A stretch of 64,000 nt of DNA from a virus (IMGVR_UViG_3300025575_000011:20151-84150); one strand, 5' to 3'; positions 3,174-64,000 are shown, counted from the first letter of the stretch. Program-made: numbers and translations. The notes: generated from the letters alone by a model not told the origin.

Positions 3174-4148
3174 ATGGCAAAGAAAACATTTAAACTAGAG
3201 CAAACTAAGGGTAACTTCAAATTTGAGGGAATTGTTGTTGGTATTTCTAAAGATACGGCTTTTATTGAAAGCGAAACCAAAGACCATAAGCCATACCGTA
3301 GCATAAGATTTATGGTTAAAACAAGTGCAACAAACATTGAGAATGTAGAACTGTTTGGGGCAGAACAAGATTTTGTGTATGCTTACTCAAGAAATGATCA
3401 AAAAACACTAAAAGTACCATTTGCCGAAAGAAACAATGAGTTTCCTGATGGTTATCACTTAATTGGAGTAAACGTAACTGTTGGAGAAGAAGAACGAGCA
3501 ACATTCGCAGATTTTGACGCAGCAGAAGCAATTTACCAAGGCTTTAGTGATGGAGATAGTGTCCATGTTGCAGGAGAAATTAAACCTAATTCATACATAA
3601 GCTCTACAAGTGGCTTACTGGTTAGTAATTTCAAGTATATCATTAAAACAATTTATACAAAAAAGAAACCTGTTGACTTTGAAGAAGCATCATTTAAAGA
3701 AACAGCATCTTTTGACCACGAATTAGTCATTACTGACGCAAATCTTGATAAAGATACAGATAAGGTTATTGTGAATGGTTATGCAATTGGGTATGCTGAT
3801 TCCGTAAAGCAAATTCAATTTGTAATTCATAATGACAAAAATCCAAAGTTAGGTAAAAACTTCTTGAAACTAAAATTTGGTGATTTCATTAAGGTACTTG
3901 GAATTTGTACAAATGCTCCTCAACAACAAGCTGTAGAAGAAGACGAATGGGGTTCTGAAGTTCCACAAGGATACAATACTGGTGGAAAGTATATTTCAGA
4001 ATTACGAATTACAGCAGTTGATAAGGACAAAGATGGTGCTTCAGTCTTCAAAAAAGGTAAGTATAATGAAGAAAGTTTTGCTGAAGATGATGAACAAGAA
4101 GAAAAACCAGAGTCAAAAGAATTAGAAGATGATGACTTGCCGTTTTAG
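3174..4148 (+). CDS. single-stranded DNA-binding protein (phage type)
   Basis: very acidic tail ending DDDLPF, typical of SSB; first gene of the replication operon. Confidence 0.7.
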   Translation: MAKKTFKLEQTKGNFKFEGIVVGISKDTAFIESETKDHKPYRSIRFMVKTSATNIENVELFGAEQDFVYAYSRNDQKTLKVPFAERNNEFPDGYHLIGVNVTVGEEERATFADFDAAEAIYQGFSDGDSVHVAGEIKPNSYISSTSGLLVSNFKYIIKTIYTKKKPVDFEEASFKETASFDHELVITDANLDKDTDKVIVNGYAIGYADSVKQIQFVIHNDKNPKLGKNFLKLKFGDFIKVLGICTNAPQQQAVEEDEWGSEVPQGYNTGGKYISELRITAVDKDKDGASVFKKGKYNEESFAEDDEQEEKPESKELEDDDLPF

Positions 4149-26895: not shown

Positions 26896-27335
26896 ATAGA
26901 CTCATATCCTCATATGCGTACAAGAGTATGTGTACATGAATGGATATGGGTCTATATGTTTATGTTCATATGCGTTTATAATTATATGAGTATAAACATT
27001 TATGTACTTGAAGCCATAAGAGTATGAGCGCATATGTACTTGTACATTTAAAATCATATACACCTAAACATATATACTCATATGAATCTAAACTCATAAG
27101 TACATGTGCGTATAAACATCTAAACCCATAGACGGATAAACATATATGTACTTATGCAATTATGTTTATATACTCATATGGGTTTATGATTACATACATC
27201 TATGGGTTTATGAATATATAATCATATGTGTTTGAATGTATAAGCACATAGACATATATGCGTATAAATACATATGAGCATAAAAATATAGATGTTCAAG
27301 TACATAAATACATAAACATCTATGGGTATATGTGT
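26896..27335. repeat. array of 55 in-register degenerate octamers (centromere- or iteron-like)
   Basis: 8-bp register kept throughout, e.g. ATATGCGT, ATAAACAT, CTATGGGT, ATATGTAC. Confidence 0.9.
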
Positions 27336-39379: not shown

Positions 39380-40462
39380 TCAAATTAGACATATCCATCC
39401 TTGAGCCCTTTTATATGTTACAATATTTTTAATAATAGCTTGTTTAACGGAATACATTATTGACAACTCTTCTAATGTGCAATTTTCATTCTCGTATTTA
39501 TATCTTATTTCTGCAAGTTGTTCAGAAGTATATTTAACCCTTGTATCAACAGGTTTTGATTTAATAGGTTTTGGCTTAATTATCTTTGGTTTATGTTTTA
39601 CGACGACAACAATATCTTCGAACTCTCCATTATTATATCTTACTTTAAATTCATCAAATTGATCAGGTGTATTATCATCTCCATAAATCTTGTGATACAT
39701 ACTATGTATGCTCTTTGATAAACAAACCCCTAAAGGATATTTGGCATGTATCCTAATACTAACTTGTTTTAATAAATCTAATTCCTCATTTGTATATTCA
39801 CCAATTATTGTATGGATAGGAAGGTTACATTCTTCAATTATTTCCTTTAACATTTTATTAAATGAGTATAGATGGTGTATAGCGTGAAATCCATTGCCTG
39901 TAACTACACATTTATAATTACAGTCTGCCATTGAATCTTTCTTCCATTTACCAATATATTCCCTTAGATAAGTATTTAAAAAAGATGTTCCTCCCTTCCA
40001 AGACGGAGCACCTTCACCAACTCTGTAATCCAAATAGCAATATAAACATCCTTCACCTTTCTTATTGTTTCCAAATATGAGGTTGTTTACTGATTTATGT
40101 TGAATAACATCTGGATGCTTTGGACAAATGTAGTCCATAAGGACTGAACAATTAACATATACTTGCGGTAGCAAAGTTAGTCCTCTCTTTGCAAATTCCT
40201 CAAATGCTATTTCATATGTATATTTTCTATATTTTCTAAATAATTCACATCCTATATATACAAGAAATTCATTATATGTTGTTACATCTAAACTAGAACA
40301 ATTATTTATGAACCAGTGAACTTGAGGCAATCCAAAATCGTGTCTATTCAACTCGGTAGATGTTAAAGTTTTCCCTAATTCCTTACATGCCTTTTTAAAA
40401 TCTACTACATATTCTTCATATGGTTTTATAGGTTTGAATTGTTGTGATCTAGACATTAACAA
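39380..40462 (-). CDS. free-standing HNH homing endonuclease
   Basis: WKGG, CVVTG...AIHHL, GVCLSKSIHSMYHKIYG; C-terminal HTH. Confidence 0.8.
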   Translation of the reverse strand: MLMSRSQQFKPIKPYEEYVVDFKKACKELGKTLTSTELNRHDFGLPQVHWFINNCSSLDVTTYNEFLVYIGCELFRKYRKYTYEIAFEEFAKRGLTLLPQVYVNCSVLMDYICPKHPDVIQHKSVNNLIFGNNKKGEGCLYCYLDYRVGEGAPSWKGGTSFLNTYLREYIGKWKKDSMADCNYKCVVTGNGFHAIHHLYSFNKMLKEIIEECNLPIHTIIGEYTNEELDLLKQVSIRIHAKYPLGVCLSKSIHSMYHKIYGDDNTPDQFDEFKVRYNNGEFEDIVVVVKHKPKIIKPKPIKSKPVDTRVKYTSEQLAEIRYKYENENCTLEELSIMYSVKQAIIKNIVTYKRAQGWICLI

Positions 40463-40500
40463 ACATCTCGCTTTCTTTTACTCGCCTAAAATATAAAAAA

Positions 40501-40563
40501 TCAACAGAAACGAGACGCGAGTTGTCTCTAATAATGGAGGATCAATCCATTACCTTCTGTTGA
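40501..40563 (-). ncRNA. candidate three-way-junction leader RNA, copy 1
   Basis: P1 TCAACAGAA/TTCTGTTGA, P2 TAATGGA/TCCATTA, P3 GAGAC/GTCTC. Confidence 0.65.
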
Positions 40564-40634
40564 TAAAAATTACATAATAAAAAGAAGGGTAAAATACCCT
40601 CCTTAAAACTAAACTATATGTATAATATTATATA

Positions 40635-41408
40635 TTAGTTGTTACTATCTTCACTAACTTTACTTAAATGCTCTCTGATTCTTTCATTCGCTAGATTGTA
40701 ATATGTATTGTCTAGTTCAAATCCTATGTAATTACGATTAGTATTTATGCAAGCTATAGCTGTAGTCCCTGAACCCATACAATTGTCTAATATTAAATCT
40801 TCCTCATTAGTATATGTATTGATTAACCATTCAAATAGATTGACTAATTTCTGAGTTGGGTGTAAAAGTTTTTTAGTTCTATCTGCCGTAGAAAATGTCA
40901 CTATACTTTTAGGGTTTTTCAAATTTGAAGTATCATTATGTCTCTTACCGACTGCTATATTTTCTCCCTCATGTATTTGTTTTGTTTTTGTATTTCCTCC
41001 TCTACTCCACATTTTACCCTCTTCCATTTGTGGATTATAGGTAGGTTGTTTCTTGTAAAAAATCTCAATATTTTCATGTTTCTGGAGTGGCTGTTTCTTA
41101 GCTAACATAGGATTTGAAGCACATACCTTATCCCAAATCAATTCATATCTAAATAATTTTGGGTTACTCATTATTAGAGAACTAGTAAAGGGCTGTTTAC
41201 CAAATAAGACTATTGCTCCATTATCCTTAATAACTCTTGTATATTGTTCCCATAATTTATCGAACGGAATAATTGTATCCCATTTACAAGCAGTTGTGCC
41301 ATAAGGTAAGTCACAAAGGATCATGTCAATAGATTTATCTGGAATCAAGCACATTCCCTTTTCTCCAATGCAGTCTTCATTATATATTTTATTTACATTT
41401 AAAATTAT
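40635..41408 (-). CDS. beta-class N4/N6 DNA methyltransferase
   Basis: LCDLPYG, HPTQK, LDNCMGSGTT; N-terminus extends to ATA/ATT at 41408/41405. Confidence 0.9.
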   Translation of the reverse strand: MILNVNKIYNEDCIGEKGMCLIPDKSIDMILCDLPYGTTACKWDTIIPFDKLWEQYTRVIKDNGAIVLFGKQPFTSSLIMSNPKLFRYELIWDKVCASNPMLAKKQPLQKHENIEIFYKKQPTYNPQMEEGKMWSRGGNTKTKQIHEGENIAVGKRHNDTSNLKNPKSIVTFSTADRTKKLLHPTQKLVNLFEWLINTYTNEEDLILDNCMGSGTTAIACINTNRNYIGFELDNTYYNLANERIREHLSKVSEDSNN

Positions 41409-41435
41409 ATATCATCCTTTCATTACCCCAGTTTT

Positions 41436-41750
41436 TTACATGACAACATTAGTTTTTAATAAATCATTTTCTTGGAGAACGCCTTCTAATTCATTATTTA
41501 ATTCACATATTTTATATAATAACTCTTGATTATTAATTAATGATTTATAATATTTATCTTTTATGTCATCCAGTTCAATATTTTTTAATTCCTTACCACA
41601 CCAAGGACAAAATTTGATTTCTACTTTAATACGTTCCCCTGCATAATGCTCTGCTACAAAATAATATTTATCTTTTTTATTGTCGTGCATAATACCCTCA
41701 TCACCAGAGCACGAACTTGTTTCTTGATATTCAATACAATATTCACACAT
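41436..41750 (-). CDS. hypothetical protein (MCEYC...FCPWCG)
   Basis: Zn-ribbon pattern; AAGGAG RBS. Confidence 0.6.
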   Translation of the reverse strand: MCEYCIEYQETSSCSGDEGIMHDNKKDKYYFVAEHYAGERIKVEIKFCPWCGKELKNIELDDIKDKYYKSLINNQELLYKICELNNELEGVLQENDLLKTNVVM

Positions 41751-41827
41751 TTTAAATGAAACACTCCTTATTATATATTATTTATTACTAGACGAATAGA
41801 CAAACCTATCCCTTGTGCATTATGCAT

Positions 41828-42067
41828 TTAGGAATTAATGATAATCTCGGAGTTTACAATTCTTGATCCTTTATGAGATTTAAGTATGTCTTGGACACTA
41901 GTATAAGTATCCCAATGTGATACTCCAGTTGCTAAATTAATTAGATTAACATTATCTGAATTAGATGATTTCCCAACCATATAAAAATCATTACCATATA
42001 ATTGAACGACTATCGGTAATTGTATTTCTTGTTTACTAATATCTTGGATAGTAAGTTTAGTTTTCAT
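41828..42067 (-). CDS. hypothetical protein
   Basis: 79 aa ORF, AAGAGG RBS. Confidence 0.55.
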   Translation of the reverse strand: MKTKLTIQDISKQEIQLPIVVQLYGNDFYMVGKSSNSDNVNLINLATGVSHWDTYTSVQDILKSHKGSRIVNSEIIINS

Positions 42068-42399
42068 TTTGTTTAACCTCTTTCATTTATTTTGTTCCAC
42101 AATATTTAAATATGAATTAAACCCAATTTTTATAGTTCCATATTTCACCCATATATAACAACAATATCAGTACTTATCAACCTCAAATAATCCACAGATA
42201 CAAGGGAATCCAGTTTCTTCATTATATAATTCAGGATTATTTTCTTCTGGATGTCCACAATCAATATCCATAATAGTACATAACCCATTGTCATTATTTT
42301 TACAACTCATATATTATCACCTCACTTCATGATAATTATACTACATATATATAATATACTCAAGATGAATATTATATATATGTAGTAGGTGAGTATTCT

Positions 42400-44238
42400 T
42401 TAATCTTCTTTTCTAATAATAATCTTAGGATAACTCCTAGCAGGACAATCAATATTAAATTTATTCTTAATTTCCTTATTAGCAGTCACCTTAACCAATC
42501 CATAACTATCCAATATCTCCTGAATACTACGTTTCCATTGACTTTCAGTAGTATAATTAACTCTTAAATCCTTCTCTAATACATAACCTTGAGCATCAAT
42601 TCCATCTAAGATATATCGAGCAATTACCAAACTATTATCATTGGATTTTTCTGTAGTCCCTAAATCATTTTCATAAGCATATTGGGGGAATACTCTATTG
42701 GTGAAATCAACTCCAAAGGTTCTTAATAGATACTCTCTAGATAACCCCTTTAAAGACATATTATTTTCTTTTAATACGATTGCAATCTTATTACTTTCCT
42801 CTAATGAATTTACACCATAAGAATCAATACTATAAAAGTTAGTCAATTTCTTATGTTTATATTTCGCTGCAATATGTTTTGCTTTCTTCAAAGTTTCTTC
42901 TGGCAATCTTTCATGTGGGATCTTATTAAGTAAACTCAGTAAAGTAAATAATGTAACACTTTGAGAAACCCTAGTTTTATCCTTTGAGCCGAATATGTCC
43001 ATCAAATTATTCAACGATACAAAGAATAAAGGATTATCATCTAAACTAAAACCCTCATCCTTAACATTCATTTTTGCAAAGTTATTCAATGCTATAAGAT
43101 TAGATTTTCTAGTCCTTATGAGCGAGTGTAGTTGTGGATATATTTCTTTAAATTCATCAGACAATAGCAATTCAATATTCGTATCAAGTATTTCTAATTG
43201 CTCTTTTTGCCATTCAGTTTGTTGTAATTCAATATTGTAAACCTTTTTGATAAATTCAATGGCTTTAACCCTTTTACATTTAGCTAATTTTTCTACTAAT
43301 GATATTATTGTATACTTTGCTTTACATCCAAAACACTTATATATTTGAGTACCATTATCAGTTTCATAGATATGAGCAGAAGGAGTGTCATCCTCATGCA
43401 AAGGAAGAATACAATTCACAGTTCCATATATATTTGTAAACTCTTTTAAGTCAATGCTATTCATATAATTATATACTTCTTGTTTATTAATGCATAAAAC
43501 ATTACTATCTTTATCAATATTGAGTAAAGACTTCATTGTATTTACATCAAGGGATTTAATGGCATCAATATGCGACAAATGCCCCGAAACCGTTGGTACG
43601 AGTGGAGTCTGAGCTTTGGCAATACTGATAGAAGAAGAATTTAGTATATTAGTATTGAGAAAGCTCACAACACCCATAGGAACTGTATTTGAGAGACTTT
43701 TAATACCATTTAATATTTCTTCATATTTATTCATAATATCTTTAACATTTATTCTATTTTCACAATCACATTCTATTAAACCCTTACCACCAAAGAATAA
43801 TCTAGTAGCATCAAAAGTAACTCCATCACTATTAGAGAATAATTCAATTAATAGTTTTTGAAAGTCATTCCTTACATTAATATCAGTGATTATTTCATCA
43901 TTACAAAATACTAATCTAAACTTTTCTTTGTATTCTTTATAGGAAAAAGTCTTATATCCGAATACTGGTTTAATACCTAATTCAATACAATTTTCTAGTT
44001 CACTTTTAATTGTAGTTCCATCATCAAAATCCAAAGCAAATATTTGTTGACTTGACCAATCTGTGTTTTTAGTCCCATTAAGATATGCAGGTTTAAATGT
44101 TGCTCCATTACTTAATAAATTTGCTAATTCCTCAATTTCAATTTCTGTTTGAGATAATCTGTTTTGTATTCCACCTGATTCTTTCCCATTCGGTTTCGTT
44201 GTAAAAGTCTTTTTGTCGAACATGCATTTAATTTTCAT
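42400..44238 (-). CDS. primase-polymerase-like replication protein with CHC2 zinc finger
   Basis: IFALDFDDG, KFRLVF, RLFFGG; CILPLHEDDTPS...YKCFGC. Confidence 0.7.
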   Translation of the reverse strand: MKIKCMFDKKTFTTKPNGKESGGIQNRLSQTEIEIEELANLLSNGATFKPAYLNGTKNTDWSSQQIFALDFDDGTTIKSELENCIELGIKPVFGYKTFSYKEYKEKFRLVFCNDEIITDINVRNDFQKLLIELFSNSDGVTFDATRLFFGGKGLIECDCENRINVKDIMNKYEEILNGIKSLSNTVPMGVVSFLNTNILNSSSISIAKAQTPLVPTVSGHLSHIDAIKSLDVNTMKSLLNIDKDSNVLCINKQEVYNYMNSIDLKEFTNIYGTVNCILPLHEDDTPSAHIYETDNGTQIYKCFGCKAKYTIISLVEKLAKCKRVKAIEFIKKVYNIELQQTEWQKEQLEILDTNIELLLSDEFKEIYPQLHSLIRTRKSNLIALNNFAKMNVKDEGFSLDDNPLFFVSLNNLMDIFGSKDKTRVSQSVTLFTLLSLLNKIPHERLPEETLKKAKHIAAKYKHKKLTNFYSIDSYGVNSLEESNKIAIVLKENNMSLKGLSREYLLRTFGVDFTNRVFPQYAYENDLGTTEKSNDNSLVIARYILDGIDAQGYVLEKDLRVNYTTESQWKRSIQEILDSYGLVKVTANKEIKNKFNIDCPARSYPKIIIRKED

Positions 44239-44281
44239 TATTAATCCATCTCACTTTCTTTTACTCACCTATGTTTATTAG

Positions 44282-44347
44282 GACTAGCAAGACTGTGTGT
44301 GAGTTACACATAATAATGGATGATCAAGTCCATTATCCTTGCTAGTC
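44282..44347 (-). ncRNA. candidate three-way-junction leader RNA, copy 2
   Basis: P1 GACTAGCAAG/CTTGCTAGTC, P2 ATAATGGA/TCCATTAT, P3 TGTGT/ACACA. Confidence 0.65.
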
Positions 44348-44619
44348 ATTTGTGCCAAATTAAGACACACAAAAAACACCTCATTAAGAAGTGCTTTTAA
44401 TCTGCCGTAATTTAATTAATTAGAAAGAGAGGACTATAAAATCCTCTCCAAAACACTAAATTTATGAAATTTTATTACTCATTCCTAAAAAGTACAACTC
44501 CCTATTCATGCACCTTTCAGGGTTTCAATTTAGAACCATTCTAATTAATAATCCATTAAACTTTCAATTTTAAATGGTAATATATTACCTATATTCCAAA
44601 ATTCATGTTTAGTTGAGAA

Positions 44620-56940: not shown

Positions 56941-58083
56941 TTATATAAATGGAATTTCTTTGGATTTTATTACATTAAGTGATAATGCTCCATTAGTACT
57001 TAAAGATAACGAATAATCGTTAATAATGAATCTTTCATCACTTAATCCTAATTTTTCATCTGTTAATGTAACAATCTCATCTGGATTTAAATGAAATAAT
57101 TTAATACTATTAATTTGAACTGAGTTTTGTACTGCTGTTTTATATTTTAGAATATAATTAGCTAAATCTGTGCATTGCAAAACCGTGGAAAGTGTATCTT
57201 TTTGATAATAAAATATTCTTTCAAATCCATTTAGATTAGGAATACTGGTTGGAGATAAAAGATTGGTGTTTGATGCCTTATATGAAACAGTTGGTCCATT
57301 TACATTTGAACCTACTACCAAACAACTATTACACATTTCTCTCCAATTATATTGATTTTTAGCACCTTGATATGAAAGATCATCTTCTGTTGTAAAATCC
57401 CATAACGATGATTTAATTCCGTCATCAACGTCTTTGCTTACAACCATTTGACCAAGTTCATTATAATAACAACTTGCTGAATATAATTGTGCAAGGTCAA
57501 CAATAATTTTACCCAATGTGTCACTTGGTTGATATGTCATAGTATAAGGATTTGTCAAACCAACTAAAGCAGAATCAATAATAGGAGCTTTAGGATCTCC
57601 ACTTAAAGTAAGAATACTTTTTATTGCTGTACTTATATCTGTCCCAACATTTATTATATATACGTAACCTAATTCTCCACCCAAATCTCCATTTATTAAT
57701 CCAAATTTATCTACTGCTTGAATACTAATTAATGATTCACTAAAATTACTTGAGACAGATGGGTCGTCTAATATAAATATTCCTTGTGGTAGAAAATAGT
57801 CTGTGCCATCTGGTAATTCTAGTCCAAGAAACAGTTGCATTTTTTGATGAATATAAAAAGAATCAATATTTGGTATATATTGATTATCTAAATTTATAAT
57901 ATCAAAATTTACAGTTCTACGAACCCCATTATTTCTTTTAACAGAAAGATTTCCAGAAGTATTAGCAATTAATGACGTTATATTTTCTATAGGGGTTTCA
58001 TCTTGGCGAAGTAACTCTAATTTAATCTTCTGTTTATGTACCCCTGATTTAAGGGCAGATATATATGAATCATAGGAGGACAT
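56941..58083 (-). CDS. baseplate hub / minor tail protein
   Basis: NGVRRTV, PQGIFI, YYNELGQMV; tail-module position. Confidence 0.65.
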   Translation of the reverse strand: MSSYDSYISALKSGVHKQKIKLELLRQDETPIENITSLIANTSGNLSVKRNNGVRRTVNFDIINLDNQYIPNIDSFYIHQKMQLFLGLELPDGTDYFLPQGIFILDDPSVSSNFSESLISIQAVDKFGLINGDLGGELGYVYIINVGTDISTAIKSILTLSGDPKAPIIDSALVGLTNPYTMTYQPSDTLGKIIVDLAQLYSASCYYNELGQMVVSKDVDDGIKSSLWDFTTEDDLSYQGAKNQYNWREMCNSCLVVGSNVNGPTVSYKASNTNLLSPTSIPNLNGFERIFYYQKDTLSTVLQCTDLANYILKYKTAVQNSVQINSIKLFHLNPDEIVTLTDEKLGLSDERFIINDYSLSLSTNGALSLNVIKSKEIPFI

Positions 58084-59006: not shown

Positions 59007-60074
59007 TTATGGTTTAAGATATTCATAAATTTGATTATTAACTATAATTAAAACCTCAATACTTTTTATCGCAATTAAAAATACTCCAGATGGCAATGAC
59101 TTTGGATTTCCATTAATAGTTATTAGTCCATTTTTATAATAAAAACATCCTAGATCAGAATCATAACCCATTTCATATGGAATTCCATCGTCATCCATGA
59201 ATTCAATCATTTTACCTCCTATAAACGAGTTGTCAGGAATATAATCAATTAAAGTTGTGAAATTCAATGGGATGCCTACATCAAATTCTACATAACTTGA
59301 TGAATTTGCTATTTTTAGTCCTGTATTGCCCGAAGTGAATAAGTTTGGAATATATGAAGATGTTCCTGTGATTGTTCCGTTTATCTGAATTGGAGAACTC
59401 CAATTTAATTTTACTGCTGACAATTCAGAAAGGAGTGTTGCTGTGGGAATAAAATTCAATGAAGGAGCAGAGTATGAACAAGTAAATGTATAAGTTAGAG
59501 AATGAATAATTAAATTCATCTGATTTTCCACAACCGTATAGCATTTATATTGATTTCCAGAAATAAAACCGTCATACTGATAAGAAATATTTCCACTATA
59601 GGAATATGGAGTTTGAAGGATTATGTTATTTAATGAGTCTAAAAAAACCATATACCAACGATTAATTGGAATAGACTGAGCTTGGGCATATGTGGCAGGA
59701 AATAAAAATTTCTTTGATGTTATAGTTGATGGAACGGTCATGGTTAATGTAGGAATAGCATAAGCATAAAAAGGTGTTTCTCTTGTGGTTGCAGAGAGTG
59801 CATTTGACCATATAGTCAAAGTCCATTTGTATTGGATTCCATTTGTTAATCCTGAGTTTAGAATATATGAAAAAATGTCGTTTTGATAAAGATTCGGAGA
59901 AAGCGAAAGTTTTGTAGAGTTAAAAATTATAGTATTTGCCATATTGTATATAATTAATTGATAGTGAGTTGCAATTGTTCCTTGTATTTTTGCTGTGAAA
60001 GTTATTGGGGAAGATGCTGTAACGCTTGTGTTATTCGGCGAGAGGTATGAACTCTGGTAGATCGCCAATATCAT
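59007..60074 (-). CDS. beta-rich tail protein
   Basis: Ig/FnIII-like repeats; follows tape measure and HNH. Confidence 0.6.
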   Translation of the reverse strand: MILAIYQSSYLSPNNTSVTASSPITFTAKIQGTIATHYQLIIYNMANTIIFNSTKLSLSPNLYQNDIFSYILNSGLTNGIQYKWTLTIWSNALSATTRETPFYAYAIPTLTMTVPSTITSKKFLFPATYAQAQSIPINRWYMVFLDSLNNIILQTPYSYSGNISYQYDGFISGNQYKCYTVVENQMNLIIHSLTYTFTCSYSAPSLNFIPTATLLSELSAVKLNWSSPIQINGTITGTSSYIPNLFTSGNTGLKIANSSSYVEFDVGIPLNFTTLIDYIPDNSFIGGKMIEFMDDDGIPYEMGYDSDLGCFYYKNGLITINGNPKSLPSGVFLIAIKSIEVLIIVNNQIYEYLKP

Positions 60075-60918
60075 TACCTCCTAAACTATTATTACTATTT
60101 ATATATTTAATATATTGCTCTAGTTGCTTAATGGTATTATTTTTCTTTCCAAATATATGATGGAAAGACCACTTAGCAGAAGAATGGTGTTCTTTACATA
60201 TCGTTATCCCGTTGTCTATATCAAATCTTAATTCTAAATTGTCAGAAAAGTTCTTTATATGATGAGCTTGGAGTTTTCCACCTCGTATACCACATACTTG
60301 ACAAGTATAATTATCTCTTTCAAAAACACTCTTTCTCCAATGTTTATATTCAATAGAACCTCTTAATTTATTTATTTCTGTTGTGATTCCTCCTTTCCAA
60401 TTGCCGTTATTTTCTCCGTAACGTTTTTTGGTGAATTCTTCTGTTTGCATATAATGTGTAAACCCATATCTTATCATATTTGCTTGATTGATTTTTGCTC
60501 TAATTGGTGAAGATTTTTTCAAAACACTTGAAACACCATATTTAATTAGGTTGGTATCCGATATTTTTTTCTTAATTTCAGGTAAACAAAATACATTATT
60601 AACATTATATTTAGCCAATGTTATTTCAGACGATTTTTTACTTGCACATTTTGAACAAGCATCTTTATTAACTAAATTAGAATTTTTCAAGCTTCTAATA
60701 TAATTTACATACACTACAGGAGAAATAGTTTCTATCCCTTCATCTAAACAATAATCACATTGCACACTAACTTTAATATTACTTCCTAAAGCCAGATCCT
60801 CTATTTTCACTGTCAGTTTATCTCCCTTTTTTGTAAATATATATCCTTTTGGCTCATATATATTTTTATTGCTTCCCCATGTTACCTCTACTTCTTTTGT
60901 CAATAACAATTTAATCAT
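60031..60918 (-). CDS. free-standing HNH homing endonuclease
   Basis: NWKGG, WRKSVFERDNYTCQVCG, AHHIKNF, NGITICKEHH. Confidence 0.88.
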   Translation of the reverse strand: MIKLLLTKEVEVTWGSNKNIYEPKGYIFTKKGDKLTVKIEDLALGSNIKVSVQCDYCLDEGIETISPVVYVNYIRSLKNSNLVNKDACSKCASKKSSEITLAKYNVNNVFCLPEIKKKISDTNLIKYGVSSVLKKSSPIRAKINQANMIRYGFTHYMQTEEFTKKRYGENNGNWKGGITTEINKLRGSIEYKHWRKSVFERDNYTCQVCGIRGGKLQAHHIKNFSDNLELRFDIDNGITICKEHHSSAKWSFHHIFGKKNNTIKQLEQYIKYINSNNSLGGNDIGDLPEFIPLAE

Positions 60919-60955
60919 TCCTTTCCGACATTTAATAAATTCCGACAACAAAAAA

Positions 60956-61016
60956 CAACAGAGAAGAATTGTCGGTTTCTTTTCAGATGTGTCATGACCA
61001 CATCCTATCTCTGTTG
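60956..61016 (-). ncRNA. candidate three-way-junction leader RNA, copy 3 (divergent)
   Basis: P1 CAACAGAGA/TCTCTGTTG, P2 GATGTG/CACATC, P3 AGAA/TTCT. Confidence 0.5.
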
Positions 61017-61041
61017 AAAAATTTCTATTTAATTGCACATA

Positions 61042-61082: not shown

Positions 61083-64000
61083 TTATTTCGTTAGACGTAC
61101 CAAATTCTGAAGTTGACTAACCAAATCTGAAGCTGAATTACTTGTGACATTTAACGTATTTATTGTAATACCACCACCATCGGAAGCAACACCATTATTC
61201 ATATTTGGTAACTTAATGTTGCTAAAATCAATTGTAGGTATTCTGAAATTAGACATAATATCAGGAATACTAATGTTTTTAAGGATAGAAGTAATATCGG
61301 GTAATTTAGCAATTAGAGCATTAAATGAAGATGTTTGTTCTGCTGTAAGAACTCTTTCTTTTTCATGAAGAATTCCAAGTTTACCTGAATCTCCCCATGA
61401 ACCTGTTTCTCCACCAGTACCAAAACTACTAAACTTCTTCTCATAATCTGATGGAGTGCCATTTCCTGTAGTTGAAGTTCCATCAGCTTTTGTTATTGTG
61501 TAATTTCCTGTAGCTTGGTCATAACTTCCATTTTTTGTAATGTTAAAATCATTTGTATTTCCATTTGAACCTGAATATGAAGAACCACTGCTACCACCAG
61601 ATGAACCTGAATTGGTAATTGAAGATGCCAATGAATTTGCTTGACTTTGTAATCCACTCATTTGTCCAACATAAGTTGTATATGCAGAAATTATAGTATT
61701 CAAATTACTACTAATATTACTTGATATATTATTCCATGTTGCTGTATTTGAATCTTGGAGCGATGTTAAAAACCCAGTATTAGCACTCGTCATAGCATCA
61801 TTAAAAGCAGTAGTATCCGCATATTCACCATTTTGAGCATTGGTAACAACAGTTTTAATATTTGCAAGATACTCAGATTTTTGATTTAATAAATCTTGAT
61901 CTGATTTATTTTTATCGTCTTGCTGAGTTTTTGCCAAATCTTGTTGCTCTTGATAAAGTGTTCCTTGAAGTTGTAATGTTTTAGTTTGATCTGCTTGCCA
62001 AGTCCATTGATAATCTCCATTACCACTTTTATCTGTTAATACACGAATTGACTTTTGATTTTGAGAATCAGATAACTCTGCTTGAGTTTTTTGAATTTGT
62101 AATTGTTTTTCAAGCAAATCTAAGTCAGAACGTTTTATATCAGCAGATGAATTAAGAAGTGCTAATTGTTGTTGACTTAATGTTAATTGATTTTTTTGAG
62201 CATCAAGAAATCCACCATTTAGAGAAGCATTATCTTGTGCTAATTGATTTCGAATTCTTAGGATTGATGCTGCTTTTTCTTCACCTGAGATATACTCATT
62301 TTGATAATTAACTTTATCTTGAAGTGCTTGTTTGGCTTGATCTTCAGTTTGACCACCAAAAATAGATAATTCTGCTGTGTGAAGTTGTTTATTCGTTTGA
62401 TTATCAAGTTGAGATTTATAAGTAGCAGAGAGTGTGGTCATTGCTGATTGTAGAGTGGATTGATATGATGTTATTTTGTCATTAATTACTTGCCATTCTG
62501 CTGAACTTTGTTGTAATAAATCTCGTTGAGTTGTTAATGCAGTAATGGATTCTTGAATTTGAGAGAGATTAGTGGTTTGAGCAGAAATTTGGGATTGGAG
62601 AATGACATTTATCATGTCATAGTTTTTAGGTTGGACTGCTTCTTGAATTTGAAGTTGGAGAGAAAGGGATGTTTCTAGCTCGGAATTTTGCTTCTGTTGA
62701 ATTTGATATTGATTATCTAATTGTGATGTAGAAGAATCAGCCATTGCTTTTTTATTTGAAGCTGAATCAAGACTTAATTTAGACATTTGATCAATTAAAA
62801 TATTTGTCGCTTCTGCTGTTAATTTAGTATTTGTTAATTGATCTTTAACTTTAGCAATTTCTTCATCAATTGCATCTTGTTTATTTTTTAGTGATAGTGT
62901 TTGATTATTTTGCTCTTGAGTATATTCTTTTGAAGAGATATTATAGAGGTCCATTGTTGCTTTAGACTGAGCAAGATGTTTGTCTACTGAAGAAATTGTG
63001 TTATTATATTGATCAATTTCTGTTGATACTAATGTGGTTTTTAGGTTTTCAATGCTTAAAGTCATACTGTCTATGGAATTTTTGTTTTCAACCCAAGATT
63101 TACGTAGCTTTTGGAGGTTAGTAAATTCCAATTCCATATTTTTCTGTGTTTCAGCACTGGATTGATTATATTCATTGATATATGTTGATGACATTTCATT
63201 ATCTTGATTTAGCCATCTATTAATATCTCCATATGATGAACTAGCAGATGCAAGGGAGGAGTCTTTAATATTATTGATTTTTGTACGAGCTTCTGTGAGT
63301 TGAGTCATCTCTAATGTTTGTGATGAAATGAGGTCATTTGTTTTTGATACTGCTGATGAATAATCTCTTGTGCTTTTAGCGATGTCTATATCTTTTTGTA
63401 TTAATGCAGATTTTTCAGATGTAAGTTTAGACACAAGAGCAATTTCTTGAAGAATGACATCACTTGCATCTTTATATGCTGGAATTTCTGGTGTTGCTGA
63501 TGAATTATTGATTTGGTTTACTGCTGTCTCATTTGTTTTACGACTATTATAGTCCGACATGATTTTAGAGACGTAGGATTTTGTCTCCTGTGGCATGTAT
63601 TGTTGTTCTTGAGCAAAAGTTGTTGTACCATGTTTGCTCATGGAATTTTGTAAATTTCCACTACCCCAGTTATAAGCACTTAATGCAAGCTCTATACTAT
63701 TGCCGAATTTCTTCATCATTTCAGATAGGTATTTAGATCCTCCAGCAATATTCTGAGCACTATCCCATACATTAGATACACCTAAGTCCTTCGCGGTTCC
63801 CGGCATAAGTTGCATAAGACCTTTTGCACCTGTTGGACTTGTAGCAGTTGCTGGTGTATTTTTGAATCCTGATTCTTGTTTGATTACAGCGTCAACGAGG
63901 GTAGCACTAATATTATTTGCTTTAGCACTAGCACGAATTTGGTCAGCGAATGGGCCTGTTACTGCTTCTATTTTTTCTGCTGCTTTGGCAAGAGCATCTG
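61083..64000 (-). CDS. tail tape measure protein with lytic transglycosylase domain (5' end outside window)
   Basis: VDAVIKQESGF..SPTGAKGLMQLMPGTA..ALSAYNWG; long Q/K-rich coiled coil; frame open to the window edge. Confidence 0.9.
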   Translation of the reverse strand, partial: DALAKAAEKIEAVTGPFADQIRASAKANNISATLVDAVIKQESGFKNTPATATSPTGAKGLMQLMPGTAKDLGVSNVWDSAQNIAGGSKYLSEMMKKFGNSIELALSAYNWGSGNLQNSMSKHGTTTFAQEQQYMPQETKSYVSKIMSDYNSRKTNETAVNQINNSSATPEIPAYKDASDVILQEIALVSKLTSEKSALIQKDIDIAKSTRDYSSAVSKTNDLISSQTLEMTQLTEARTKINNIKDSSLASASSSYGDINRWLNQDNEMSSTYINEYNQSSAETQKNMELEFTNLQKLRKSWVENKNSIDSMTLSIENLKTTLVSTEIDQYNNTISSVDKHLAQSKATMDLYNISSKEYTQEQNNQTLSLKNKQDAIDEEIAKVKDQLTNTKLTAEATNILIDQMSKLSLDSASNKKAMADSSTSQLDNQYQIQQKQNSELETSLSLQLQIQEAVQPKNYDMINVILQSQISAQTTNLSQIQESITALTTQRDLLQQSSAEWQVINDKITSYQSTLQSAMTTLSATYKSQLDNQTNKQLHTAELSIFGGQTEDQAKQALQDKVNYQNEYISGEEKAASILRIRNQLAQDNASLNGGFLDAQKNQLTLSQQQLALLNSSADIKRSDLDLLEKQLQIQKTQAELSDSQNQKSIRVLTDKSGNGDYQWTWQADQTKTLQLQGTLYQEQQDLAKTQQDDKNKSDQDLLNQKSEYLANIKTVVTNAQNGEYADTTAFNDAMTSANTGFLTSLQDSNTATWNNISSNISSNLNTIISAYTTYVGQMSGLQSQANSLASSITNSGSSGGSSGSSYSGSNGNTNDFNITKNGSYDQATGNYTITKADGTSTTGNGTPSDYEKKFSSFGTGGETGSWGDSGKLGILHEKERVLTAEQTSSFNALIAKLPDITSILKNISIPDIMSNFRIPTIDFSNIKLPNMNNGVASDGGGITINTLNVTSNSASDLVSQLQNLVRLTK

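Follow-up and report, generated by a model that had tools for sequence, protein, structure and literature searches.

The window analysed here is the whole 64,000-nt stretch IMGVR_UViG_3300025575_000011:20151-84150, which is part of an 84-kb IMG/VR viral contig from a large uncultured phage with an estimated completeness of about 51%. On its minus strand, three genes are preceded by an RNA leader element that folds as a three-way junction, in which an outer helix (P1) encloses two hairpins (P2 and P3). Two copies had been reported in an earlier note based on the sequence alone, at 40563-40501 (copy 1) and 44347-44282 (copy 2) on the strand of their genes, and both sit there. We detected a third copy at 61016-60956. 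The genes located 5' of the copies are a methylase gene, a small open reading frame (ORF), and a tail gene. The junctions, their helices, the genes behind them and the nearby terminators are as follows.

39380..40456, minus strand: HNH-type endonuclease gene behind copy 1, 358 aa (phrog_5104; HNH motif alignment)
40501..40563, minus strand: copy 1 three-way junction (78.2 bits with the window-type model R1; folding)
40563-40555 with 40509-40501, minus strand: copy 1 P1
40554-40546 with 40538-40530, minus strand: copy 1 P2, apex TTGATCC at 40545-40539, palindrome GATC
40528-40524 with 40516-40512, minus strand: copy 1 P3, loop AACTCGC at 40523-40517
40582..40604, minus strand: terminator-like hairpin of the upstream methylase gene, 18 nt 5' of copy 1
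42400..44238, minus strand: primase-like gene behind copy 2, 612 aa (CHC2 zinc finger; invariant N-terminal LDFD motif)
44282..44347, minus strand: copy 2 three-way junction (82 bits with the window-type covariance model; folding)
44347-44338 with 44291-44282, minus strand: copy 2 P1
44337-44329 with 44320-44312, minus strand: copy 2 P2, apex CTTGATCA at 44328-44321, palindrome TGATCA
44310-44306 with 44298-44294, minus strand: copy 2 P3, loop AACTCAC at 44305-44299
44372..44398, minus strand: terminator-like hairpin 24 nt 5' of copy 2
44449-44426, minus strand: second terminator-like hairpin 5' of copy 2
60031..60918, minus strand: HNH homing-endonuclease gene behind copy 3, 295 aa (PF01844, DUF7487), between tail genes
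60956..61016, minus strand: copy 3 three-way junction (15.1 bits; descriptor scan)
61016-61008 with 60964-60956, minus strand: copy 3 P1, followed by the junction strand TA and P2
61005-60999 with 60991-60985, minus strand: copy 3 P2, apex GTCATGA, palindrome TCATGA, followed by the junction strand GAAA and P3
60980-60977 with 60968-60965, minus strand: copy 3 P3, loop ACCGACAA at 60976-60969

The three-way junction is the minimum-free-energy structure of both copy 1 (-22.3 kcal/mol, z = -3.7 in comparison with shuffles) and copy 2 (-25.5 kcal/mol, z = -5.1). P2 and the loop containing TTGATC are common to these two copies, and P1 and P3 pair in each of them despite their differing sequences, as the earlier note described. 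The pattern TAATGGA-N5-10-TCCATTAT occurs in the window at these two sites only (0 expected). In copy 2 the reported coordinates and fold hold and the reported register of P3 does not: TGTGT/AACTCAC/ACACA followed by GT is preferable, because its 7-nt loop and GT junction then agree with those of copy 1. Terminator-like hairpins are indeed present 18-24 nt before both copies, and both leaders lie just 5' of a ribosome-binding site, with start codons at 40456 and 44238. Copy 3 was found by the window-type covariance model and by an independent descriptor scan, which required a P1, two hairpins, and complementarity of the second loop to two downstream sites; the scan gives approximately 1-2 false positives per genome.

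Covariation was assessed on eight window-type leaders with 24 base pairs, and all family-wide statistics below refer to 26 parsed leaders. In this larger alignment the covariation seen between copies 1 and 2 persists: 14 of the 24 pairs changed on both sides (0 of 500 shuffles), and 96.7% of alignment cells pair vs 85.9 +/- 1.5% in shuffles and 28-52% in slid controls. The suggestion that the element acts as RNA on the gene strand is also borne out. The pairs include 36 G-U pairs, the gene-strand fold is the more stable one in 22 of the 26 leaders, and the leader and its downstream gene are co-oriented in every case.

A palindrome of 4-8 nt is nearly always present in the P2 apex. A palindrome of at least 4 nt is present in 18 of the 21 distinct P2 hairpins and one of at least 6 nt in 12 of them (0 of 5000 shuffles); P3 apexes contain none (0 of 25). 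The palindromes are GATC, TGATCA, TCATGA, TAATTA, TTATAA, AGCT, GGCC, and TTGCAA, and the unpaired bases on the 5' side of the apex usually outnumber those on the 3' side by one (1+4+0, 1+6+0, or 2+6+1). The junction strands have no nucleotide conserved throughout the family: the strand between P1 and P2 (J12) is empty, TA, TAA, or TTT, the strand between P2 and P3 (J23) varies from A to GAAAA, and the strand between P3 and P1 (J31) is empty, GT, or AT.

Two direct repeats, designated R1 and R2, lie in the conserved block 3' of the junction. Copy 1 has two GCGAG and copy 2 two GTGAG, each exactly complementary to the CTCGC or CTCAC in its own P3 loop. The repeats of the three copies and the predicted energies of their duplexes with the P3 loop are the following.

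40481..40485, minus strand: copy 1 repeat R1, GCGAG, candidate decoy site (-8.9 kcal/mol)
40467..40471, minus strand: copy 1 repeat R2, GCGAG, part of GCGAGATG, Shine-Dalgarno region 10 nt before the ATG at 40456 (-7.5 kcal/mol)
44264..44268, minus strand: copy 2 repeat R1, GTGAG (-7.4 kcal/mol)
44250..44254, minus strand: copy 2 repeat R2, GTGAG, in GTGAGATGG, Shine-Dalgarno region 11 nt before the ATG at 44238 (-6.0 kcal/mol)
60942..60947, minus strand: copy 3 repeat R1, TGTCGG, matching CCGACA of the loop (-10.0 kcal/mol)
60925..60930, minus strand: copy 3 repeat R2, TGTCGG, adjoining the AAAGGAA ribosome-binding region before the ATG at 60918 (-9.7 kcal/mol)

The duplexes with R1 (-7.4 to -10.0 kcal/mol) are slightly stronger than those with R2 (-6.0 to -9.7 kcal/mol). 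Among the leaders, the loop and both repeats vary jointly: CTCGC with GCGAG twice, CTCAC with GTGAG twice, CTCTC with GAGAG twice, CCGACA with TGTCGG twice, CGCCTT with AAGGC twice, TCCTT with AAGGA twice, and GTCCTTT with AAAGGAC. A complement of at least 5 nt to the P3 apex occurs twice within 120 nt downstream in all 26 leaders vs 12% of shuffled downstream sequences. In an alignment of ten sequences, the helix formed by the loop and R2 is 96% paired, and its variable position shows three Watson-Crick types. The end of R2 is typically 9-11 nt before the start codon (median 9), and R1 is often purine-rich and resembles a Shine-Dalgarno sequence. The distance between R1 and R2 has a median of 17 nt and is 14-21 nt in 20 of the 26 leaders.

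About 28 copies of the element are present in the phage clade, further ones having been located in three related genomes and neighbouring contigs with the covariance model and the descriptor scan. Most of them head homing-endonuclease genes (HNH, GIY-YIG, DUF4379/NUMOD), which agrees with the tie to selfish nuclease genes proposed earlier. In the relatives, the genes behind the leader include a SegE-like GIY-YIG gene, two GIY-YIG/NUMOD genes, and DUF4379/phrog_559 and NUMOD1/DUF559 nucleases. One other copy precedes an antirepressor-like gene and others the primase-like gene; some copies in L124, L214, and L220 precede genes that were left unannotated. In the window, regarding the copy-1 gene as an HNH endonuclease is reasonable, since its product and the copy-3 protein align at the HNH motif (E = 1e-5). 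No close relatives of the copy-1 protein were found in viral contigs. The LDFD motif of the 612-aa protein may indicate a primase-polymerase-like enzyme.

According to protein homology, the 612-aa protein has homologs with 70-84% identity in viral and metagenomic contigs, and the same leader architecture, largely different in sequence, lies upstream of all of them. The homologs with at most 48% identity have a terminator and a plain ribosome-binding site, and the junction was not found there. The nearest cultured homolog is only 23% identical. The host may be of the Clostridia type, judging solely from the taxonomy of the more distant homologs of this protein. Exact-pattern scans of viral contigs returned only chance palindromes for the P2 pattern and no match for the ribosome-binding block or for P2 with its loop, and blastn of both leaders against cultured phages gave only noise.

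Several observations were made beside these genes and leaders. At 44350-44440 (minus strand) of the window, a conserved box resembling ATATTTCAATAGA pairs across the terminator hairpin with TGTGTTGAAATA. Such boxes also lie 5' of the primase-gene leader in L121, L122, L128, L207, and L208, and TGTGTTGAAATA can alternatively make a small hairpin (TTGTGTTGAAATAACACAA) beside P1; the boxes around this terminator make a second conserved structure, possibly an alternative one. Directly 3' of the primase-like gene, a nearly perfect AT-rich palindrome of 45 nt (42341-42385) is probably a bidirectional terminator; microRNA models match both its strands weakly, and we regard these matches as noise. A related phage contig has three tRNA genes in tandem (L119:8821-9051), about 1 kb 3' of the primase-like gene. 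The leader in L288:692-811 (G001:C1 95037-95101 and the sequence beyond) is well formed and has compensatory changes in P2; only a 25-codon ORF (MEEIKTKVCKICGKEKPVGEFESSGKK) follows it, apparently what is left of a decayed zinc-finger nuclease gene.

The junction between the tape-measure-like gene (SLT domain) and the next tail gene carries an HNH gene in the window (61083-63815 / 59007-60074) vs a nuclease gene of the DUF4379 type in a complete relative of 166.6 kb (G001:C1 86671-90239). Both nuclease genes have a three-way-junction leader of their own, and the two leaders differ; the place looks like a recurrent insertion hotspot. Another leader is shared by nuclease-like genes at G001:C1 ~69140-69300 (minus strand), G002:C1 ~3700-3843 (plus strand), and G003:C1 ~63700-63857 (plus strand). 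It consists of a GGTT(T/G)CT start, a hairpin, a strong terminator-like hairpin, and then a ribosome-binding site; the nuclease-like genes behind it are homologous to the N-terminal domain of the copy-3 HNH protein, and it may represent another leader family. Two other window matches were rejected as copies of the junction. The covariance-model match at 56992-57053 (18.5 bits) lies within a coding region, is AT-rich, and has a non-palindromic P2 loop of 3 nt and low-complexity loop matches. The descriptor-scan match at 26932-27007 (plus strand) is a false positive, a strong branched fold of -21 kcal/mol in an ORF-poor stretch rich in CATAT/ATATG.

The element had been presented as undescribed, which does not hold for its family. 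In the Rfam scan, same-family leaders of relatives, including primase-gene leaders of two related lineages, match int-alpA (RF02996), and the window copies give no match at the gathering threshold, which is 35.8 bits for this model. The primase-gene leader L220:1779-1849 scores 46.7 bits, above the threshold, and two others are near it: L214:5603-5673 (35.4 bits) and the primase-gene leader of genome G003 (32.4 bits). Since the window copies are below every Rfam threshold, it is understandable that they could not be assigned to a named family before. int-alpA comes from a survey of candidate RNAs (Weinberg et al. 2017, PMC5737381) and is typed as 'sRNA'; the main text of that paper contains no discussion of it. 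A literature search found no functional study of int-alpA. To our knowledge, its function has never been tested.

In the RF02996 consensus, the strands of the three-way junction include CUAG and CGAAAAG, the P3 loop contains CCUU, and a U-rich tail is followed downstream by AAGGG. We compared the window copies with four canonical members from Proteobacteria and Thermosulfurimonas (46.7-68.3 bits). In each of the four, the P3 loop has two complementary repeats downstream, and the P2 loop contains a palindrome of 4 nt. The second repeat lies just before the start codon in L323 and L318, the two members with a called downstream ORF, and in L318 the order is a tRNA, a P4-type integrase, int-alpA, and then a cargo gene and alpA. 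The window copies likewise have a P1 (about 8 bp in the model) enclosing P3 and a short P2 hairpin, a P3 loop complementary to a purine-rich downstream box in all three copies, the second repeat before the start codon, a palindromic P2 loop, and a position at the head of variable cargo genes of a mobile element. There are also differences. The window P3 loops have CUCGC, CUCAC, and CCGACA instead of CCUU. Copies 1 and 2 lack the CUAG...CGAAAAG strands, having no J12 and a J23 of 1-2 nt, and their P2 is of 9 bp with an apex of 7-8 nt, whereas copy 3 matches the junction strands partially (AUAGG...CUGAAAAG). The window element is AT-rich and int-alpA GC-rich, and the setting is a large phage with homing endonucleases and a primase-like gene, in contrast to the integrase/alpA islands of int-alpA.

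The orthologous primase-like gene, with proteins 70-80% identical, carries an RF02996-scoring leader in two lineages and the window type in others, and the intermediates in L207 and L208 have the P2 apex GGAUAGGCCAUYC in common with the int-alpA-scoring type. Judging from these sequence comparisons, the three window elements are divergent, AT-rich variants of int-alpA, a known orphan motif. Certain results speak against this assignment. The window copies have no RF02996 match even at E <= 10 in small sub-windows, and the window-type model locates three of the canonical four correctly, with scores of only 7-10 bits, which is the level of noise; so they are divergent variants rather than scoring members. 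The membership rests on orthologous position, on the intermediates in L207 and L208, and on the architecture and unusual features in common.

As for the function, we somewhat favour, at little better than even confidence, a structured, cis-acting 5' leader on the gene strand, a variant of int-alpA, that would set or switch a low rate of translation. We infer that pairing with R2 represses translation, that R1 is a decoy, and that P2 dimerises. The leader would be a portable module ahead of an accessory or selfish gene, and its three-way junction would present two functional loops. The P3 loop would act as an address-matched anti-Shine-Dalgarno sequence, turning translation off when it lies on R2 at the ribosome-binding site and leaving it on when it lies on the identical upstream R1. 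In this manner the leader would hold or adjust a potentially harmful nuclease at a low level. The palindromic P2 apex would probably let two leaders kiss, possibly tipping the choice between R1 and R2.

Ribosome-binding-site-sequestering structures are known to restrain the T4-family homing endonucleases I-TevI, I-TevII, I-TevIII, SegB, and MobE (PMC2988022). As in those phages, an upstream RNA structure in the window is complementary to the ribosome-binding site of a homing-endonuclease gene, often beside a terminator. The T4-family structures are simple hairpins formed locally, and a late promoter within them gives relief (PMC2988022); the window element, in contrast, is a separate three-way junction that would reach the site via its loop, as a pseudoknot. 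Its target is duplicated, its second loop is palindromic, and it is common to several nuclease families. Possible promoters of the phage lie upstream of P1, not inside the junction. The nuclease-type copies have A/T-rich boxes like TAAATA, TATAAA, or TATTAT 10-25 nt 5' of P1 and a conserved ATTTT directly before P1 (window 40564-40585 and 61017-61040; G001 and G003), which would possibly place the transcript start at the junction. A scan for consensus sigma-70-type promoters showed no enrichment of promoter-like hexamers. Pseudoknots that sequester the Shine-Dalgarno site are known in preQ1-II and SAM-II/V riboswitches, and a three-way junction with a loop-to-downstream pseudoknot is known in flavivirus exonuclease-resistant RNAs. 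The window element resembles these RNAs in its predicted loop-to-downstream pseudoknot at the ribosome-binding site or closing the junction, and differs in having no conserved ligand pocket and no Rfam match.

Several facts weigh against a translational leader of this kind. A single P3 loop cannot occupy R1 and R2 together, which leaves the conservation of both without an explanation, and R1 pairs slightly better than R2, so a simple lock that is always off is unlikely. The repeats of copy 3 adjoin a purine-rich ribosome-binding region and lie outside its bounds. One relative has a homolog of the copy-1 HNH protein without the leader, which is therefore not obligatory; together with the varied combinations of nucleases and leaders, this points to a portable, non-obligatory module of accessory gene cassettes. 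In addition, a U-run immediately follows P1 in many copies and in the Rfam consensus, which would fit a terminated small RNA too. We consider the latter possible but rather improbable. Transcription would often stop at the U-run, releasing the junction as a stable small RNA that would act in trans or as a dimer, in accordance with the small-RNA type given in Rfam, and the two P3 loops of a dimer joined through the P2 loops would clamp R1 and R2 of read-through mRNAs, giving a dose-dependent shut-off. A U-rich tail directly 3' of P1 is present in about 10 of the 26 leaders, including copies 1 and 3, the palindromic and asymmetric P2 apex is highly significant, and a bivalent binder would explain two identical targets at the spacing given above. 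However, P1 closes a branched structure and would make a poor intrinsic terminator, copy 2 and its close relatives have no U-run, kissing through AAUU or UAUA would be weak, and by eye the spacing of R1 and R2 does not follow the length of P2. The 9-nt form of the P2 apex has the layout of the HIV-1 dimerisation loop. The apexes AG-TAATTA-A and AG-TTATAA-A of the relatives resemble HIV-1 SL1, with a 6-nt palindrome, two unpaired bases 5' and one 3'; many other apexes are shorter (1+4 or 1+6), unlike SL1, and the context is the mRNA leader of a bacterial virus. A self-counting clamp, in which a P2-kissed dimer sets two anti-Shine-Dalgarno loops on R1 and R2 of one message and shuts it off cooperatively as the leader RNA accumulates, would account for both kept repeats, the self-complementary P2, and the U-run after P1; we regard it as a speculative idea with perhaps a minor chance of being correct.

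It is unlikely that the leader serves as a stability or processing element, in which a pseudoknot of the P3 loop with R1 near the 5' end would lock the junction and shield the mRNA from 5'-to-3' decay of the RNase J1 type or mark a processing site, with R1 as a Shine-Dalgarno-like stabiliser. The topology of a three-way junction with a loop-to-downstream pseudoknot and the purine-rich character of R1 would suit such a role, as would a transcription start at P1 suggested by the A/T-rich boxes and ATTTT. It leaves the match and covariation of R2 with the loop and the palindromic P2 apex unexplained, and the absence of enriched promoter-like hexamers counts against it as well. A signal at the DNA level, i.e., single-stranded DNA or a cruciform used in recombination, cassette exchange, homing, or primase or replication loading, is very improbable. 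Here, as in integrase islands, the element does mark the 5' edge of variable cargo genes, its palindromic apexes resemble restriction-type sites, and one copy adjoins a primase-like gene. However, on the opposite strand each of the 36 G-U pairs would turn into an A-C mismatch. Both the orientation of the element and its distance from the start codon are fixed, the loop and the ribosome-binding site covary, and the palindrome of the apex does not sit centrally on the stem; by eye, the latter also dismisses a simple palindromic DNA site for a dimeric protein. The element may also have a protein partner or serve as a mobility signal, as suggested earlier. A ligand-binding or ribozyme function had been suggested too, and a 5' leader that forms a compact three-way junction and a pseudoknot might recall a ligand-sensing riboswitch or a self-cleaving ribozyme. 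Both are unlikely, because the family has no conserved nucleotide in its junction; furthermore, Rfam scans of the window and the relatives gave no match to a ribozyme or riboswitch model, and the downstream genes have no common metabolic theme, so we give this explanation scarcely any credence. Inspection by eye found neither the CUGAUGA/GAAA core of a hammerhead nor a conserved small ORF of a leader peptide.

The RF02996 model misses AT-rich variants, and the family is larger than catalogued. The phage copies tie the orphan int-alpA to the heading of homing-endonuclease genes and other accessory gene cassettes. If a leader that restrains translation is the correct explanation, a shared portable RNA module would keep unrelated free-standing selfish nucleases at tolerable levels, and the type of int-alpA would change from small RNA to cis-regulatory leader, possibly a dimerising one. 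If instead the clamp formed by a dimer proves true, RNAs of the int-alpA type would be widespread dimerising, address-coded translational repressors on mobile gene cassettes, ranging from Proteobacteria to phages of Gram-positive hosts.

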